Below are positions 4,793-60,455 of a stretch of 64,000 bases of DNA, one piece after another. The stretch is from a virus (taxonomy: Duplodnaviria > Caudoviricetes), in the IMG/VR virus record IMGVR_UViG_2974709037_000001, positions 6,184 through 70,183 of that record; one strand, 5' to 3'. Positions within the stretch are counted from its first letter, which is position 1; each line of letters begins with the position of its first letter. Below the pieces are notes generated by a model, which was not told the origin of the DNA, did no database searches, and saw only the letters and a program-made list of their open reading frames with translations. The position numbers and the translations under genes were made by a program.

Positions 4793-7700
4793 GTGGCTGA
4801 ATTTGTTGCCGCCCAGGCGTCGGTGCTTATCGTGCCGACGCTTGGGAAGGGTGCCAATAGCTTCCACCAGAAGCTAAAGGAGCAACTACAGACGGTCCGT
4901 GAGTCGGTTGACGTAAAGGTCAAGGCTGATACGGCGGCGATGGTTGCCGAGGTTCAGGCCACCAAGGAAATGCTTGAGCGTGACCCAATCAATATCCGGG
5001 TCGAGACGGACAACAACGGAATCAAGGAACTCGTTAAGAACGTCACCGAGGTTCGGCATAAGTACGAGGACTTGAAGGGTGACTTTCGTCGGGGCCTGAC
5101 GCTGAACCTTAAGGTCGTTGGGCTTAGCGCGCTAACGCAGCTCGGGCCTATGTTGGCTTCACTTAACACGTCGATTGTGCAGTTGTCGCAGTCGTCGCTA
5201 TTGCTGCCCGGCATCATGTCGGGTGTCGCGTCGTCTGTGGGCGCGGCGATGGTTGGTTCTCGCGGCCTTACGGATGCGTTCAAGGCCCAGTCAGACGCGT
5301 CTAAGAACGTTGCGGAGGCTGGTAAGCAGCAGCGGGACGCAAACCGGGCTATCCGGGATTCAACGCGCGATCTGAATAACGCGATCCGTGACACTAAGCG
5401 GAACCTTGAAGATTTGAACGCCCAGCTCCGGGACGCGCCGCTGGACGAAGCGGAAGCCATGCTCAACCTGCAAGAGGCTCAGTATGAGGCTTCGCAGAAG
5501 TTCGGCAAGACGGCTTTCCAGCAGCAGCGTGACGCGCTAGGGCTGGCTAAGGCTGAATCGCAGCTTGCAGAGACTCGACGACGGAACGTCCGGCTCGGCC
5601 AGGACGTAGCCGAGGCAAACGCCAAGGGTGTCAACGGCAGTGACGCGGTTGTTGCTGCGCAGGAGCGGCTAACTAAGGCGCTTGAGGACTTGGCGATGCA
5701 GACGGGTCCGATTCGGGCTCTGAACGACGCTATGGCGAAGCTGTCGCCGAATGCGCGCGACTTTGTTGATCGGGTGAGTTCCCTCAAGGGTGTTTGGGAC
5801 GGACTGCGGTCGACGGTTCAGGACCGGCTATTCGACGGCCTAGGCGCTTCTGTGCAGACTTTGGCAGGGCAGGACTTGCCGATCCTCGAACGTGGCTTGA
5901 CGGGCATTGCAGGGGCCATTAACGGCAACCTCAAGACGGCGATGAGTCAGCTAGCGACTGACGAGAACAAGGGATTCCTTGGGCGCATCTTCGGTAACAC
6001 AGAAGAGGCTCAGAACCGGTTCTCTACGGCGCTCAAGCCGCTACTGGATTCGTTCATTCAGCTTAGCGCTGCCGGGTCGGACTATCTGCCGCGACTATCT
6101 AACGCTTTCGGCGATGTGCTTAACCGGTTCGACGGGTTCATTGAGCGCGCGGACGCGGACGGCTCACTGGACAAGTGGATCAACAACGGACTCGACTCGC
6201 TGACGCAGCTTGGTAACTCGCTGATCAACGTCGGGTCGATTATGAACACGATTTCCGAGGCTTTCACTGGTACGGGCGGTAAGGGTCTTCTGGAACTGTT
6301 GGAGACGGGCACTAAGCGTCTCGCGGATTTCCTTAAGGGTGCCGAGGGGCAGCAGAAGCTTAAGCAGTTCTTCTTGGATGCGCGTACGGAGCTGAATAAC
6401 TGGAAGCCTCTGCTTTCGCAGCTTCCGGGGCTGATTAAGAACGTGGCGACGGCGGGTCAGCAGTGGGCGAACATGGTTATGCCGTTCCTCACGACTGCGG
6501 CCAGCTTGCTTAAGGAACACCCTGGTCTGGTTATGGCGATCTTCTCCGCGTACATGACGTGGCGAACGATTAGCCCGATTATCGGGACGATCAACCTTCT
6601 GTTGAGCTCTGAGACGGGCATGGTCGGTGCGGCTAAGAAGGCCGGGCGGGCTGTCGGTAAGGGTGAGGGCCTGACGGGCAAGCTAGGTGTCCTAGCAAGC
6701 ATGGTCGGTTCCGGCGGTGTCGTGATGACTGGCCTATCTCTGGTGGCCGGGTTCCTCTTGAACGAGTGGGTCACGGCGCAGAATGAAGCGGCTGAGGCCG
6801 TTTCGTATCACGCGTCCATGATCAGCCGTCTTAAGGGCGAGATGGACGGGCTCACGGGCTCGCTGACGACGCAGGGCTTGCAGAACAAGCTTGACGCTGC
6901 GCGGCAGTGGACGGACATTCACCAGACGGACGGCAAGCCTAAGGACTTGGTTGCTGCCGCCAACTCGTTTGGTGTGGACCTGCCTACGTTCATGGGGGCC
7001 TTGACTCCGACGAACCAGGCCGCGCGTAACGCGGTGACCGGCAAGGCTCGTCAGACGGTGTTGGACGACCTGAACAAGCAGGGCTTGGAGACGGTTCTAG
7101 GCAAGGACGCCCTGAACGCGTTGAACCTGTACAACCAGAACGCCGCGCCGGATAAGAAGATCACCAACGATGTTCTGGCGGATATCGCTACGGGTGTTAA
7201 CCCTGAGTCTAAGAAGCTGTTTGAGGACGCTAAGAAGTCGAACCTAATTCACTTCAACGAGTCTGATCTGTTGTACGGCTATAACAAGCCGTGGGGCTTC
7301 ATTCCAGGTACCGATCCTTCTGGTAAGGGTCTGTCTCCGGTTGCGCGCGATGCCGCGAATGTTAGTGGGTTCGTCCTGAACGACACGGGTAACGCGTTGC
7401 AGGTCGGCTCGGATATCCGGTCGACGAATGAGGCGCTTTACGGGAAGGCCACGCTTACTCCGGCTGGTCAGCAGATGTTCGGTCCGTTCGGGTCGCCTCA
7501 GGCGTCCTTTGAGAATGGGTCGCACGACGCGGCGGTGCGGGTGGACACGACGCTACAGAACTTGCCTCCGCAGTTCGTTAAGGACGTTGAGTCCAACGGC
7601 GGGCATTTCGAGGAATTGCCTGATGGCGTGATTATCCACATGCGTAAGGACCGTGCGTCTCAGTATGTGACGCCGGGTGCGTATGCGGGTGGCGGTCTGC

Positions 7701-33415: not shown

Positions 33416-33636
33416 AGCACCTTCTGAGGCACCTTGCCGCGCTCCACTACTTCCGTAGGGAGCGCGGCAGGTTGCCCACCATTAAGGAACTACGCGATGA
33501 CTCTAAGACTTAAAGTCTTCGGTTTTGAGGTTGTCCGGGTGGAGTTGGAAATCCCGGAAGTCGACTCCCGAAGCGTTACCCCGATTCAGCGGGTCGTTAA
33601 AGGCACTAGCAACTGGTGGGTTAAGAGGATGAACGC

Positions 33637-33861
33637 ATGAGCGTTAAGAAGCGCACACCCGAACAAGGCCGAATCGTAGTCACACTCGAATACTCGATGC
33701 CCCGCGTGTACTGGCCTGAGTACGCGGATGGTGGAAAGCGAATCATTACGGATGCGGTCGACTGCCTCAGGCAGAACGTCCAAGACTTCCGTGATGGCGC
33801 GCTTTCCCTTGGAGACCTAATTCAAGGTGCCGACGAAATCCACGTCGAAGCCACTAAGTAA
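33637..33861 (+). CDS. Hypothetical protein
   Basis: GAGGA RBS, coupled. Confidence 0.55.
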   Translation: MSVKKRTPEQGRIVVTLEYSMPRVYWPEYADGGKRIITDAVDCLRQNVQDFRDGALSLGDLIQGADEIHVEATK

Positions 33862-33873
33862 GAGAGGGTAAGC

Positions 33874-35295
33874 ATGACTACCTTTTTGCAGAGCTTGCAG
33901 TCCCAGTTCAACACCACTCGCACGGAGAACGGCGACAAGGCGCACAAGTCGAGCCTTGATCCGGTGGTGGATTACTTCGGCCTGGCGGGCGCTATGCGTG
34001 ACCGCGCGGAGGCATCTGCCGACCTGTTAGAGAAGGCGTTCCGTGTTGACCCACAGGCCGCTGTGCGAACCCTGTTCTATCTGCGGGACGTGCGCGGGGG
34101 CCAGGGCGAGCGTGACGTGTTCCGGGCGGGCCTCAAGCGGCTTCTGAACAAGTACCCCGGTCTGGACTGGTCGGTGCTCAAGCATGTTCCGTTCTACGGG
34201 CGTTGGGACGACCTGTTCTACGACGGTGCGACGGTCACGCCGCCTGTGGCGCGGATTCTCCACAATCAGTGGGCCGCTGACGTGGCGGCTTACGAGCGTG
34301 GCGATCAGGTGTCGCTAATGGCTAAGTGGCTGCCGTCCGACAAGAGCAAGTCGCGCCCGGAGCTGGCTATCGCGGTCCGTCAGGCGCTCGGCCTGACTCA
34401 GCGTGAGTACCGGCAGACCCTTACGGCGCTTAGGGGCCGGATTGGTCTCGTCGAGCACGACATGTCGGAGCGCACGTACGAGCACATCGACTACTCGAAG
34501 CTCCCGGCGCAGGCGCACCGTAAGCACGTTAAGGCGTTCCGGCGCAACGACGGTGAGCGGTACCAGGCGTTCCTTGACGCTGTGCAGCGCGGCGAGGCGA
34601 AGGTGAACACGTCGACTCTGTATCCGTACGAACTGTTCGATCTGTGCCGGTCGGACCCGCAGGCGGCAGACGCGCTGTGGAAGAACCTGCCTGACTACAC
34701 GCAGCCGGGCCAAGACGCGCTTGTCTTGCCGGACGTTTCCGGTTCGATGTATGGCCGTCCCATCTCGGTGTCTGTGTCTTTGGCGCTGTACTTCGCGGAG
34801 CGCAACACTGGTCCGTACCAGGGCTATTTCCTGTCGTTCGACACCACGCCAAAGCTGGTTAAGGTGCCGGAGTCGGGCGACCTGGCGCAGAAGTTGTCGG
34901 CGGTCGAGTACCACACGAACAACTCCGGTTCGACCAACTTGGAGGCCGCATTCGCTGCGATCCTCCGGGCGGGTGTCCAGTCGGGCTCGGTTCCTGGCGT
35001 GCTCTACGTCGTTTCGGACATGCAGTTCAACCAGGCCCTTAATCACGCCGATCTGAGCGTGTTCGAGTCGGCCAAGCTCGCGTTCCGTTCGCACGGCTTG
35101 GAGTTGCCGCACGTGGTGTTCTGGAACGTCAATGCGCGGCATGATCAGTTGCCCGCGACGGCTATGGACGGCAACGTGACTTTGGTTTCCGGGCTGGCTG
35201 CGACGACGTTTGCGCTGGCCGTGGAGGGTAAGTCGCCGCGTGAGCTGGTGGACGACGTAATCAATTCGGAGCGATACGCAAATATCGTTCTGTAA
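33874..35295 (+). CDS. DUF2828-type Ro60/TROVE-like RNA-binding protein with vWA domain
   Basis: TENG, RDVRGGQGER, YGRWDDL, AKWLPS in a helical N-terminus; MIDAS DVSGSM, STN, SDMQF and VFWNV in the vWA domain. Confidence 0.85.
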   Translation: MTTFLQSLQSQFNTTRTENGDKAHKSSLDPVVDYFGLAGAMRDRAEASADLLEKAFRVDPQAAVRTLFYLRDVRGGQGERDVFRAGLKRLLNKYPGLDWSVLKHVPFYGRWDDLFYDGATVTPPVARILHNQWAADVAAYERGDQVSLMAKWLPSDKSKSRPELAIAVRQALGLTQREYRQTLTALRGRIGLVEHDMSERTYEHIDYSKLPAQAHRKHVKAFRRNDGERYQAFLDAVQRGEAKVNTSTLYPYELFDLCRSDPQAADALWKNLPDYTQPGQDALVLPDVSGSMYGRPISVSVSLALYFAERNTGPYQGYFLSFDTTPKLVKVPESGDLAQKLSAVEYHTNNSGSTNLEAAFAAILRAGVQSGSVPGVLYVVSDMQFNQALNHADLSVFESAKLAFRSHGLELPHVVFWNVNARHDQLPATAMDGNVTLVSGLAATTFALAVEGKSPRELVDDVINSERYANIVL

Positions 35296-35338
35296 AACTT
35301 CCATCCTGCCCGGCTAGGCCGGTAAGGTTGGTAACAGG

Positions 35339-35599
35339 TGGACGCGAACAGCAATTAAACTTCTTCTGCTAAAGAAACAAAATGCGTCCAGTACAAAACC
35401 TGTGGACCCCCACAGCAATTACCTACATTCCATGATAAGGACGAGGCGCGGGTTCGATTCCTGCCATATCAGGGCCGTAAGGTGCCTGTTGTAGCTCAGA
35501 GGTAGAGCGCGTATGTAAACCAAGGGGTCCAGTACATAGCGGCTGTGGACACGAACAGCAATTCTAACTCTTTCAAATGGTGAAAATAGAATGTGTCCA
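35339..35599 (+). ncRNA. Array of three Y-RNA-like hairpin units (35339-35390, 35403-35531, 35546-35599)
   Basis: Each reads TGGACnn..ACAGCAATT...nnGTCCAGT with compensatory stem changes; unit 2 contains tRNA T and D arms in permuted order. Confidence 0.8.
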
Positions 35600-35613
35600 G
35601 TTCCGCCGCGTTT

Positions 35614-35654
35614 AGCCCGCCCCGCGCTTTTATGACTGCGGGGCGGGCTTTTTT
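35614..35654 (+). terminator. Intrinsic terminator closing the Ro-like/ncRNA unit
   Basis: AGCCCGCCCCGCG/TGCGGGGCGGGCT stem followed by a T run. Confidence 0.85.
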
Positions 35655-35797
35655 GTGCCCTGAAAGGACTTAAACATGCCAGGACCAATGTCCGCGCCTA
35701 ACGGCAACAAGCTGATCACGGTGAGCGCGGAAGCCCGTAAGAAAGCCGGTCGGACCGGCAAGACGGAGCTGGTGCGCGAGCGGAAAGGCAACAAGAA

Positions 35798-36133
35798 ATG
35801 AAGGCTCTCGTTATCGTGGCGGCGGTCGCGGTCGGCCTGTCCATGTCTGGCTGCGCTACGCAGAACCAGCATTGGGAGACGGGCTGCAAGGTCACGTCGA
35901 AAGACATGATCTATAGCAGCACTGATGGAAACTCGTCACGTAAGAAGCGGATTAGCACGTCGTGCGGCGCTTTCGATGTCGAGGACGCCTGGGAAGCGGG
36001 TTCGTTCAGCTCATACGACCTGTGGTCAAAGCTAGAGGTTGGTAAGACCTACGACCTCAAGGTGGGCGGCATCCGGAACGGGTTCTTCTCGATGTTCCAG
36101 ACCGTCTTGGAGGTTAAAGAATCGAATGGCTAG
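35798..36133 (+). CDS. Lipoprotein
   Basis: Signal peptide with MSGC lipobox. Confidence 0.7.
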   Translation: MKALVIVAAVAVGLSMSGCATQNQHWETGCKVTSKDMIYSSTDGNSSRKKRISTSCGAFDVEDAWEAGSFSSYDLWSKLEVGKTYDLKVGGIRNGFFSMFQTVLEVKESNG

Positions 36134-41335: not shown

Positions 41336-42630
41336 CGGAGCCTGACGAGTATCCGCCTGACGAGGACTACGGCGCACAGCCGCCAAGCGATCTGGGCGCG
41401 GAGCAATGCGTTATTGGATCGGTTCTGCTGTCAACAAAGGCGCTTAACTCACTAACAGCGCTGATCACTGCCGGGGACTTCTACCGGCCTATCCACGGTG
41501 ACATTTACACGGCAGCTCAGGCCCTAGCGTCAGCCGGTGAGCCGGTCGACGCGATGACGGTTGCCAAAGAGCTTGAGAAGCGCGGCCAACTCAAGCGGGT
41601 TGGTGGGGCACCGTACCTGCTGACCTGTATGGAGAACACGCCTACAGCCACTAACGCTGAGGCGTACGCGCGGATGGTCCTCGACAAGGCGAAGCTTCGG
41701 CGGCTCGACGAGCTGGGCACCCGGCTTAAGGCGCTGGCGTACTCCGAGGCCACGACGAGCGACGACGTTAACGCTCTGATGGGCCAGGGTGAGAAGTTCT
41801 TCCGGTCGCAGCATGAGCCGGATGACACTGCGGTGTCGTTCGAGGGAATGATTGCCTCGTGGGAGGAATGGCAGGCCACTGACGTTGGGTCGATCCCGAC
41901 GCCTTGGGAGGCCCTGAATGCTCGTCTGAATGGCGGGCTACAGCGCGGGCGGCTGTACACCATAGCTGCCAGGCCGGGTGTCGGTAAAAGTGTTGCAGCG
42001 TTGCAGATGGCGGCTTTTGCGGCCCACTGGGGTTTCCCTGCGGCGTTCTTCACATTGGAAATGTCCAAGGATGAGGTTACGTCGCGGCTTATCTCTGCCG
42101 GGTCAAACACGGACTTTAGCCGCATCATGCAAAAGCGTTTGGACCTAGAGGACCGCGAGAAGATTGACCGGTACCTAAAGGACAGTCGCAATCAGCCGTT
42201 GCAGACCGTCGACCGGTCAAGGGTCACGGTTGAGCAGATCGTGGCGCACTGCCGGTCGCTAGGAAAGCTCGACGTGTTGGTGGTCGACTACCTACAGCTC
42301 ATGTCGGCAACGGACACCAAGGCGTCTCGTGAGCAGCAGGTAGCTCACATGTCGCGTTCCTTGAAGATTGCGGCTAAGGAACTGGACGTGGCGGTAATCG
42401 CGTGTTCGCAGTTGAACCGTGGTCCCGTTAAGGACGGTAAGCCGCGTGCGCCGACGATTGGCGATCTGCGCGAGTCGGGAGCGATTGAACAGGATAGCGA
42501 TGTCGTTCTGTTGCTGCATACCGACGAGGACGATCCGGGGATTATCCAAATGATTATCGGTAAGAACCGTAATGGCCGGATGGGGGACTTGATGTTCAAC
42601 TTTGAGGGCCACTATCAGCGCATCACATGA
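41332..42630 (+). CDS. dnaB: DnaB-like replicative helicase
   Basis: AARPGVGKS, VDYLQL, SQLNR, DLRESGAIEQDSD, KNRNG. Confidence 0.95.
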   Translation: MTEPDEYPPDEDYGAQPPSDLGAEQCVIGSVLLSTKALNSLTALITAGDFYRPIHGDIYTAAQALASAGEPVDAMTVAKELEKRGQLKRVGGAPYLLTCMENTPTATNAEAYARMVLDKAKLRRLDELGTRLKALAYSEATTSDDVNALMGQGEKFFRSQHEPDDTAVSFEGMIASWEEWQATDVGSIPTPWEALNARLNGGLQRGRLYTIAARPGVGKSVAALQMAAFAAHWGFPAAFFTLEMSKDEVTSRLISAGSNTDFSRIMQKRLDLEDREKIDRYLKDSRNQPLQTVDRSRVTVEQIVAHCRSLGKLDVLVVDYLQLMSATDTKASREQQVAHMSRSLKIAAKELDVAVIACSQLNRGPVKDGKPRAPTIGDLRESGAIEQDSDVVLLLHTDEDDPGIIQMIIGKNRNGRMGDLMFNFEGHYQRIT

Positions 42631-60122: not shown

Positions 60123-60195
60123 GCGCGGGTAGCTCAGTGGTTAGAGCGCTGCTCTGATAAGGCAGGGGTCCGTGGTTCAAATCCACGTTCGCGCA
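60123..60195 (+). tRNA. tRNA-Ile(GAT)
   Basis: CTGCT-CTGATAA-GGCAG. Confidence 0.9.
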
Positions 60196-60259
60196 CGTAT
60201 CACACCTTGTTTAGTTTTGTCAAACAACCAAACGGGCCGAAATGGCATTTTGGTTGTAT

Positions 60260-60406: not shown

Positions 60407-60455
60407 CACTGCCCCCTTCTAAGCCTCTCAGCGATGCTCAAATGGGAGGGGCCTT

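Follow-up and report, generated by a model that had tools for sequence, protein, structure and literature searches.

The sequence described here is a 64,000-nt stretch of viral DNA (IMG/VR record IMGVR_UViG_2974709037_000001, positions 6,184 to 70,183; the window), and its subject is an RNA element at 35403-35531, the middle one of three tandem Y-RNA-like modules. The window comes from a cluster L mycobacteriophage. All 90 records matched by BLAST with it are Mycobacterium phages, the best of them Chaser at 86%. The modules occupy the intergenic region 3' of a gene for an RNA-binding protein of the Ro-like kind and are followed by a terminator. They share a common design, a closing stem with the motif CAGCAA two to three bases after its 5' strand, and a tRNA-like core is confined to the middle module. 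Module 2 starts 108 nt past the stop of the same-strand Ro-like gene. The locus contains the following features:

33874-35295, + strand: gene for the Ro-like RNA-binding protein, 473 aa, with a helical-repeat ring and a vWA domain (Pfam, PHROG, fold comparison)
35339-35390, + strand: Y-RNA-like module 1, without a tRNA-like core; closing stem 35339-35345 / 35384-35390, CAGCAA at 35349-35354, preceded by CGAA (sequence and module scan)
35403-35531, + strand: Y-RNA-like module 2, predicted YrlA-type tRNA mimic, 129 nt (sequence, Rfam partial match, module scan, covariance model R1)
35546-35599, + strand: Y-RNA-like module 3, without a tRNA-like core; closing stem 35546-35552 / 35593-35599, CAGCAA at 35556-35561, preceded by CGAA (sequence and module scan)
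35615-35654, + strand: intrinsic terminator, with an 11-bp G+C stem (35615-35625 / 35638-35648) and then a T tract (35649-35654)

The initial annotation had described module 2 as a YrlA-type tRNA mimic with the T arm before the D arm and a sealed acceptor end. Every element that it listed is present in the sequence (35200-35750), and a partial Rfam YrlA match together with covariation agrees with the class. Module 2 is built as follows, with tRNA numbering in brackets:

35403-35410, + strand: 5' strand of the closing stem, 8 bp with 35524-35531
35413-35418, + strand: CAGCAA motif, presumed docking signal for a Ro-like protein, found in all three window modules
35424-35428, + strand: 5' strand of the linker helix, UACAU, pairing with AUGUA at 35513-35517
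35429-35441, + strand: cis hairpin of UCC at 35429-35431 (29-31), the 7-nt loop AUGAUAA at 35432-35438 (32-38) and GGA at 35439-35441 (39-41)
35442-35443, + strand: CG (42-43), in trans pairing with C35510-G35511 (27-28) (partner-swap test)
35444-35447, + strand: variable loop AGGC; C35447 (48) forms the Levitt pair with G15 (35499)
35448-35464, + strand: T arm GCGGG-UUCGAUU-CCUGC (partial matches to Rfam YrlA and tmRNA; covariation)
35465-35491, + strand: closed acceptor-like arm with a GUAA-capped extension; cap GCC-GTAA-GGT at 35474-35483 (sequence)
35492-35509, + strand: U8-A9 (35492-35493), D arm GCUC-AGAGGUA-GAGC (35494-35508) and G26 (35509) (sequence, Rfam, covariation)
35510-35512, + strand: CGU after the D arm and G26 (sequence)

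Module 2 is probably a Ro-docked Y RNA of the YrlA type, the middle of three co-oriented modules, whose interior forms a tRNA L-shape with a side-attached anticodon arm. The closing stem and the single-stranded CAGCAA would likely serve as the docking site for the Ro-like ring protein. The interior would fold into the L-shape with its acceptor end sealed and its T, acceptor, and D arms in permuted order. The equivalent of the anticodon arm would consist of three cis and two trans pairs (27-28 with 42-43) and a 7-nt loop with U33, A37, and A38, and the Ro-docking stem would branch off to the side at a nick that interrupts the anticodon stem's 5' strand. The tertiary nucleotides of a tRNA are present (U8, A14, G15-C48, G18G19, and the UUCGA T loop).

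A probable split anticodon stem

Relatives were collected from two sources. Scanning IMG/VR with the Ro-like protein gave 44 loci with 29-91% identity, and scanning the representative genomes of GTDB with a profile yielded 479 candidate stretches, 435 of which were confirmed by tblastn, so that bacterial genomes commonly hold relatives of the protein. Of these, the best 80 were retained, which makes 124 protein-anchored loci in all (loci are numbered L001 and so on). A rule-based scan for a T arm and then a D arm with an upstream CAGCAA-like word produced 46 distinct modules including that of the window, which was added by hand because its bulged acceptor arm failed the scan filter. Five (L141, L084, L092, L103:1187, L107) were removed because they were tRNA dimers or had 'acceptor' spacers of implausible length, which left 41.

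The anticodon stem had been proposed to be split, with positions 27-28 (or 27-29) supplied from the 3' side after the D arm and 29-31 (or 30-31) from the hairpin, and both partner swapping and covariation uphold the proposal. The trans helix was scored by counting how many pairs follow one another when the bases that come after position 26 are set against those immediately 5' of the variable loop. Its mean length is 2.61 pairs, with at least two in 35 of the 41 modules and at least three in 26. When the 3' partners were swapped among modules (2000 permutations), the mean fell to 1.18 +/- 0.16 (maximum 1.78), and the number of modules with at least three pairs averaged 6.9 (maximum 16). Sliding the 3' strand by -1, +1, +2, or +3 gave means of 0.68, 1.44, 0.73, and 1.02. 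Trans pair types differ by lineage and include C-G, G-C, A-U, and G-U: the strands read CG(U)/(A)CG in cluster L, C[U/C]G/CGG in L017-L028, GG/CC in L064, and GC/GC and AC/GU in L108.

The composite stem was defined as 5 bp made of at least two cis pairs plus the trans pairs. By this definition the composite stem is perfect in 34/41 modules, 23 of them with a 7-nt loop. When the 5' part was shuffled 500 times, the corresponding means were 15.9 (maximum 23) and 7.0 (maximum 15). Among the 19 distinct 7-nt loops, U33 (loop position 2) occurs in 16, A37 (position 6) in 15, and A38 (position 7) in 13. The strand of positions 39-43 runs unbroken through the hairpin and the trans helix, and nine modules hold all five anticodon-stem pairs in cis, with a loop of 7 or 8 nt.

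Alignment A4 contains the 12 modules with a 4-nt variable loop and a 7-nt loop, chosen by fit. The split model pairs 94.4% of its cells (68.6% in shuffles), with the cis helix 88.9% and the trans helix 87.5% paired, and both trans pairs change on both sides. An earlier alignment of 27 modules (A2), in which modules with a 4-nt variable loop and those with a 5-nt one had their hairpins misaligned, was replaced by A4, and an all-cis 5-bp hairpin was rejected since it fits A4 worse than the split stem does (80% paired, with one pair open in 6/12). Covariance model R1, built from the 12 modules of A4, scores module 2 at 67.2 bits (E 1.6e-19) and the window's own tandem tRNAs at no more than 36.4 bits with partial coverage. 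Alignment A5, fitted to R1, comprises 78 matches in 72 distinct rows, and its cis and trans helices are 90.2% and 88.2% paired.

The remaining helices covary as well. The T, D, acceptor, and closing stems do so in A4, A5, and A3, a MAFFT alignment of 10 relatives on which RNAalifold recovers these four helices. In the closing stem predicted from A3, two of the eight pairs change on both sides, and a third changes from C-G to U-G, on a single side. Among the 41 modules, the Levitt pair 15-48 is A-U in 22, G-C in 16, and something else in three. By eye, the linker covaries among relatives (UACUU/AAGUA in Chaser; UGC/GCA in the Gardann and Crossroads types; UUCU/AGAA in L004; GAU/AUC in the L017 group). 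In L005 the acceptor arm changes from CAGG/CCUG to CGGG/CCCG and its cap from GUAA to GUGA. The acceptor arm of Chaser is wholly unlike that of the window.

The same hairpin can be read in the published V-arm geometry, in which it is a side arm whose loop has no anticodon-like role, and the trans helix stacks on the linker, the two forming one unbroken 'anticodon stem' that runs on to the Ro-docking stem, as the crystal structure of S. Typhimurium YrlA has it. Chen et al. 2014 name the stem-loop upstream of T the 'V stem-loop' and describe a conserved YUAY at the beginning of its loop (PMC4201824), and the S. Typhimurium structure is reported to have a continuous, kinked AC stem (10.1101/312249). 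The 8- or 6-nt loops of 11 composite modules also favor this geometry, and the linker-hairpin junction of the window likewise has zero unpaired bases. The position of the hairpin argues the other way. It lies 5' of positions 42-43 and within the stem that these form with 27-28, whereas the variable arm of a tRNA sits between 45 and 48. A separate, normal variable loop of 4-5 nt follows the hairpin, and the last base of that loop covaries with position 15. The 41/42 junction is always continuous, whereas the other two junctions have 0-3 free bases. The nine all-cis modules and the U33/A37/A38 signature, which is that of anticodon loops, point in the same direction. Natural tRNA variable-arm loops are short. 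Since the hairpin lies 5' of 42-43, strand 39-43 is continuous, and a normal variable loop comes next, the hairpin is read here as an anticodon arm and not a variable arm, and the V-arm geometry is considered unlikely.

Relatives and the Ro-like partner

Modules of this design accompany the Ro-like gene. With a module defined as an exact closing stem of at least 6 bp plus CAGCAA within the 1.5-kb flanks, 109 of the 124 loci have at least one on the same strand as the gene, and same-strand modules outnumber opposite-strand ones by 300 to 31. The whole 64-kb window holds four on its + strand, three of which are the array. Module 1 is kept in Chaser and Gardann, and module 3 is the only part of the array matched by BLAST in L1 phages such as LeBron.

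Closing stems vary across phyla by compensatory changes (UGGAC/GUCCA, UAGAC/GUCUA, AAGGC/GCCUU, AAAGC/GCUUU). Those of L031, L038, L064, L068, L079, L088, L108, and others follow one pattern and often go on as ...UUG or ...UAG on the 3' side, as would suit a conserved helix for recognition by a protein. The window's copies of the closing stem matched no Rfam family. Five loci carry two to four or more tandem tRNA-like modules beside the Ro-like gene (L031 3100-3560, L038 3180-3900, L079 2930-3410, L088 450-1450, L108 400-920). Each of these modules has a different anticodon-like loop, those of L108 being CUCGAAA, UUGCUAA, and UUCUUAA.

The product of 33874-35295 matches Pfam DUF2828 (3.5e-30) and DUF7788 (7.9e-27) and PHROG 850, 'RNA-binding protein'; Pfam TROVE was not matched even when hits up to E<=10 were admitted. 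From 21 relatives, AlphaFold2 produced a model with a pLDDT of 87.5 and a pTM of 0.86. When this model was compared with the PDB by Foldseek, the best 12 matches were all Ro60/TROVE structures (TM 0.33-0.60), including Xenopus and human Ro60, D. radiodurans Rsr, and, as second-best match, the Ro60 of Thermus phage phiLo. A phmmer search of PDB sequences with the protein returned no Ro60, which was seen by fold comparison only. The homolog in Chaser carries the annotation 'Ro-like RNA binding protein'. The modeled partner thus has the Ro60 fold, yet it lies outside TROVE by sequence.

Library scans and single-sequence folding give little indication of the element. Nothing at the module 2 locus reaches an Rfam gathering threshold. 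At a permissive threshold, the sole meaningful match is YrlA at 22.5 bits (E 0.026; gathering score 69), over model positions 30-81 of 114, which cover the T, acceptor, and D arms only. The YrlA of mycobacteriophage Bxz1, which is of the published type, also falls under the gathering score at 32.5 bits, so this threshold is a poor test for phage members. No canonical YrlA above the Rfam threshold was found in 41 genomes of one Mycolicibacterium-type genus.

Several observations weigh against a Ro-docked YrlA-type RNA with a rebuilt anticodon arm. Cluster L itself shows no variation in the trans pairs (CG/CG), so that it is only more distant lineages that supply the covariation. Seven of the 41 modules lack a composite stem, among them that of the L1 phage DirkDirk and L029, and DirkDirk (L009) and L019 have no convincing hairpin. 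In 11 of the 34 composite modules the loop is 8 nt, or 6 nt in one, and not 7. A4 was selected by fit and A5 was fitted to a model, and both lean towards the structure. RNAalifold on A3 recovers neither the hairpin nor the linker nor the trans helix, although A3 is unfit for testing the hairpin because MAFFT placed gaps inconsistently there. The minimum free energy (MFE) fold of the 129-mer, at -42.4 kcal/mol, is not the proposed one, which has -31.1 kcal/mol; in a comparison with shuffled sequences, an MFE of -43.2 kcal/mol corresponds to a z-score of -0.90, and 36/200 shuffles fold equally well. The Rfam YrlA score of module 2 equals that of tRNA dimers in the same genome.

Further points against it come from the 5' side and from relatives without a core. 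The 5' side of module 2 reads GGACCCCCACAGCAAUU, and the canonical Ro-binding motif GNCGAAN0-1G is missing from it by inspection; modules 1 and 3 have only CGAA before CAGCAA and no full motif either. The T-loop motif is absent in the loci L010-L015, L020, L021, L035, and L043, and the middle module is short and without T or D arm in the four that were read (L010, L015, L020, L035). An L2 phage without the whole region is described as viable (PMC12714340). The coreless middle modules and this phage indicate that the tRNA-like domain is dispensable. The coreless loci have 57-59% protein identity and keep a three-module array, and their sister group, L017-L028, has a full tRNA-like core.

The scores of the tRNA dimers and the unremarkable z-score would also suit a coincidental likeness, or a leftover of tandem tRNA genes that is inert and gives rise to no RNA of its own. 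This is scarcely credible given the compensatory changes, which extend from cluster L phages to prophage-like loci in other phyla, the constant position and strand beside the Ro-like gene, the terminator directly downstream of the array, and a contig from an RNA library, described below, that is confined to the array.

Circularly permuted tRNA genes of algae and archaea yield mature, chargeable tRNAs through a circular intermediate. In 10.1101/312249 such genes are brought up merely for comparison. Module 2 could in principle be a true permuted tRNA-Ile gene. The closing stem and linker would then be cut out and the ends joined through the phage polynucleotide kinase (Pnk) and ligase, and RNase P together with a 3' processing enzyme would open the cap at the acceptor end, leaving a working tRNA. 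The rejoined halves do form a full cloverleaf with correct tertiary positions, and L2-type relatives have exactly 7 bp in the acceptor arm and a 5-nt loop. M. smegmatis YrlA is reported to be cut by RNase P and to gain CCA when its acceptor stem has 7 bp (PMC4201824).

In module 2 as it stands, the contiguous cloverleaf with free acceptor ends of a functional tRNA is not formed, as a capped hairpin closes the acceptor end. The acceptor arm is irregular, with seven pairs, two single-base bulges, and a 3-bp extension. The same closing stem and CAGCAA enclose modules that are not tRNA-like and follow Ro-like genes across phyla, and among near relatives there are loops of 8 nt and the 'anticodon' changes. 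At 35403-35531, neither ARAGORN nor the Rfam tRNA model calls a tRNA; the 13 tRNAs that ARAGORN finds in the window all lie at 58.4-62.7 kb. They include a normal tRNA-Ile(gat) at 60123-60196, which Rfam also finds and which the initial annotation had pointed out, so the phage already has this tRNA. No bacterial pathway is known to excise such an insert. With its bulged acceptor, shared non-tRNA frame, linkage to Ro across phyla, and varying loop lengths, a permuted-tRNA gene is very unlikely.

Gardann shows how such modules can be taken for tRNAs. Its record (NC_031124.1) annotates a tRNA-Asn at 42089-42159 (L001 2569-2639), on the 5' part of a Y-RNA-like module. This span contains a closing stem, a hairpin with the loop CUGUUAA, and a T arm, and ARAGORN finds no tRNA in it. 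The annotation looks like a mis-call caused by an anticodon-like hairpin followed by a T arm. In GenBank records these Y-like RNAs are either unannotated or, as here, mis-called as tRNA.

Comparison with published Y RNAs

The closest known counterparts of module 2 are the YrlA RNAs of mycobacteriophage cluster C (Bxz1/ET08 type) and of actinobacteria such as M. smegmatis. Like module 2, these lie beside a same-strand Ro-fold gene and have a closing stem, the order T arm, closed acceptor arm, and D arm, and a covarying Levitt pair. They also share the 3-bp hairpin, the 7-nt loop, the two trans pairs, and the 4-5-nt variable loop. Bxz1 has a TROVE gene with the Rfam YrlA match just upstream; its RNA reads CUC-AUUGCAA-GAG, then AG, AGGUC, and the T arm, with G-CU after the D arm (trans CU/AG). 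Mycolicibacterium YrlA has the canonical GGCCGAAUG motif and reads CCA-CUACGGA-UGG, then AG, with A-CU after the D arm (trans CU/AG). R1 finds both over its full length, at 47.9 bits for Bxz1 and 51.1 bits for Mycolicibacterium.

There are also differences. The partner in the window is a DUF2828/DUF7788 protein, whereas that of Bxz1 is a TROVE protein. The 5' motif in the window is CAGCAA, and theirs is GNCGAAN0-1G with GUCGGUUACC. The RNAs of the window lie downstream of the gene in a three-module array. Its acceptor arm is bulged and extended, and theirs is a clean 7 bp. Module 2 has three marks of a YrlA (a nearby same-strand Ro60-fold gene, T placed 5' of D through a closed acceptor, and the Levitt pair) and lacks three others (a TROVE partner by sequence, GNCGAAN0-1G, and an Rfam score of 69 bits).

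The initial annotation had called the retained anticodon loop unusual. This stands when module 2 is set beside S. Typhimurium YrlA and the Rfam consensus, both of which lack the hairpin, and fails when it is set beside actinobacterial and phage YrlA, because Bxz1 and Mycolicibacterium YrlA have the same hairpin and trans pairs. The CUAC of the Mycolicibacterium loop fits YUAY, so the hairpin is already in print as V. Module 2 is accordingly classed as a YrlA-type Y RNA, and its anticodon-arm feature is a real one that it has in common with published relatives. What is added here is the assignment, made from sequence comparison, of the V hairpin as the anticodon arm of the cloverleaf. A literature search, which did not cover figures and supplements (such as Tables S1/S2 and Figure S1 of Chen et al. 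2014, with 22 phages and drawn structures), found nothing on Y RNAs of cluster L, DUF2828 in connection with RNA, or an anticodon-arm reading of V. The cluster L papers, in their available text, mention the Ro-like protein without Y RNAs (PMC13148394, PMC12714340), and 'Y RNA' and 'noncoding' do not occur in that of the LeBron paper (PMC13148394).

S. Typhimurium YrlA (RF02553) resembles module 2 as a T-before-D mimic with a closed acceptor stem and in a short helix between the bases after the D arm and those before the variable loop. In the RF02553 consensus, by contrast, the T arm is not preceded by a hairpin, and the 'anticodon stem' of 4 bp runs into a second helix. S. Typhimurium YrlA is described as lacking an anticodon loop (Wang et al., 10.1101/312249). 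For D. radiodurans Yrn1, a potential 'anticodon arm' with a 5-bp stem has been proposed, as in module 2; the published description, however, gives it a loop of 6 nt, denies it a full D arm, orients T and D the other way round with respect to the ends, and assigns it a separate origin (PMC4201824). Thermus phage phiLo, with its Ro60 and Yrl1/Yrl2, resembles the window in pairing a phage Ro-fold protein with adjacent phage Y-like RNAs. Unlike module 2, the phiLo RNAs are described as stem-bulge-stem structures with a CGAA motif, upstream of the gene (PMC12135203). The terms 'tRNA-like' and 'anticodon' do not occur in the main text of the phiLo paper (PMC12135203).

Possible roles and array expression

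Y RNAs are known as tRNA mimics without an anticodon end. In module 2 and its relatives, the little-discussed 'V stem-loop' and two trans pairs would rebuild a 5-bp stem and a 7-nt U33/A37/A38 loop, giving a whole tRNA silhouette that carries the Ro-docking stem at its side. Proteins that recognize the anticodon arm would then join the candidate partners. In early lytic growth, the tRNA-shaped domain would most likely recruit or occupy, for the Ro-like protein, a host factor that binds tRNA, or else gate the Ro-like protein itself. This role is drawn by analogy with the Ro60/Y-RNA particles of D. radiodurans, S. Typhimurium, and phiLo (PMC4201824, PMC12135203), in the last of which the phage Ro60 is reported to bind phage Y-like RNAs and the host PNPase (PMC12135203). 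The host M. smegmatis and its phages lend themselves to easy manipulation, so what the tRNA-like domain of a Y RNA does would be directly testable in this system.

The initial annotation had suggested either a decoy or a precursor for the phage Pnk and ligase. In the present form of the decoy idea, the loop would be offered as bait to anticodon-directed host nucleases or modification enzymes, and the Ro-like protein, Pnk, and RNA ligase would handle the outcome. The idea is attractive because the loops resemble natural anticodon loops and vary (CUGUAAA, CUCGAAA, CUGUCAC, CUGUUAA, CUCUUAA). The window loop differs from the loop of the phage's own tRNA-Ile, CUGAUAA, solely at position 32. Chaser, a relative of the window phage, encodes both Pnk and RNA ligase. 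For LeBron, overexpression of the Ro-like protein, of RNA ligase, or of Pnk is reported to be toxic, and that of gp53 moderately so (PMC13148394). In Salmonella, the Ro and Y-RNA genes lie within an RNA-repair operon (PMC4201824; PMC7790460).

The relatives fit a decoy less well. The 'anticodon' differs among close relatives (GAU, GUU, GGU), and in several of them GAU or GGU stands in an 8-nt loop, which disfavors strict mimicry of tRNA-Ile. The annotated tRNAs of Chaser, which has a GAU loop, do not include tRNA-Ile, and a consistent tie to the phage tRNA set is thus missing. Relatives that lack the hairpin or the whole core exist as well. A decoy function is accordingly judged improbable.

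A broader reading has two parts. In the first, a Ro-like particle would show variable anticodon-arm mimics (GAU, GUU, GGU, GCU, UGC, and others) as bait for, or sensor of, host anticodon nucleases or modification enzymes, with Pnk and RNA ligase as counter-defense. In the second, the DUF2828 Ro-like proteins and the CAGCAA arrays would form a second, undescribed, widespread Ro/Y-RNA system of phages and prophages. Taken together these are improbable. In the loci compared here, a Ro-fold family unseen by the TROVE profile (DUF2828/DUF7788) travels with its own CAGCAA-marked arrays of Y-like RNAs.

The three modules are probably transcribed with or just after the Ro-like gene, and one strong terminator would end them. 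A simple scan found no sigma-70-like promoter in 33600-35800. The terminator was missed by a simple terminator scan because its loop is 12 nt, and partial Rfam matches to terminator-like sRNA models fall on it. In one metatranscriptome run, 20% of the sampled words were present, and two sister runs had none. A 279-nt contig from an RNA library, with a depth of 26.7, covers 35346-35416 and 35524-35625; it shows neither ends nor strand, and the uncovered flanks prove nothing. It matches modules 1 and 3 almost exactly, and 106 other letters replace the tRNA-like core. Because of these letters, it is taken as the array of a relative with a different core, and the core is thus exchanged from one close relative to another, with the flanking modules unchanged. 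The contig is a weak hint that the array is expressed.

Two smaller elements were noted elsewhere in the window. A hairpin, CCGGC-UAG-GCCGG, lies in 35300-35338, between the stop of the Ro-like gene and module 1, and is partly kept in Chaser. An Rfam abiF RNA motif (RF03085) is found at 60415-60451 on the + strand, with 40.5 bits and a gathering score of 37, and sits between tRNA-Gly and tRNA-Lys of the phage tRNA array.

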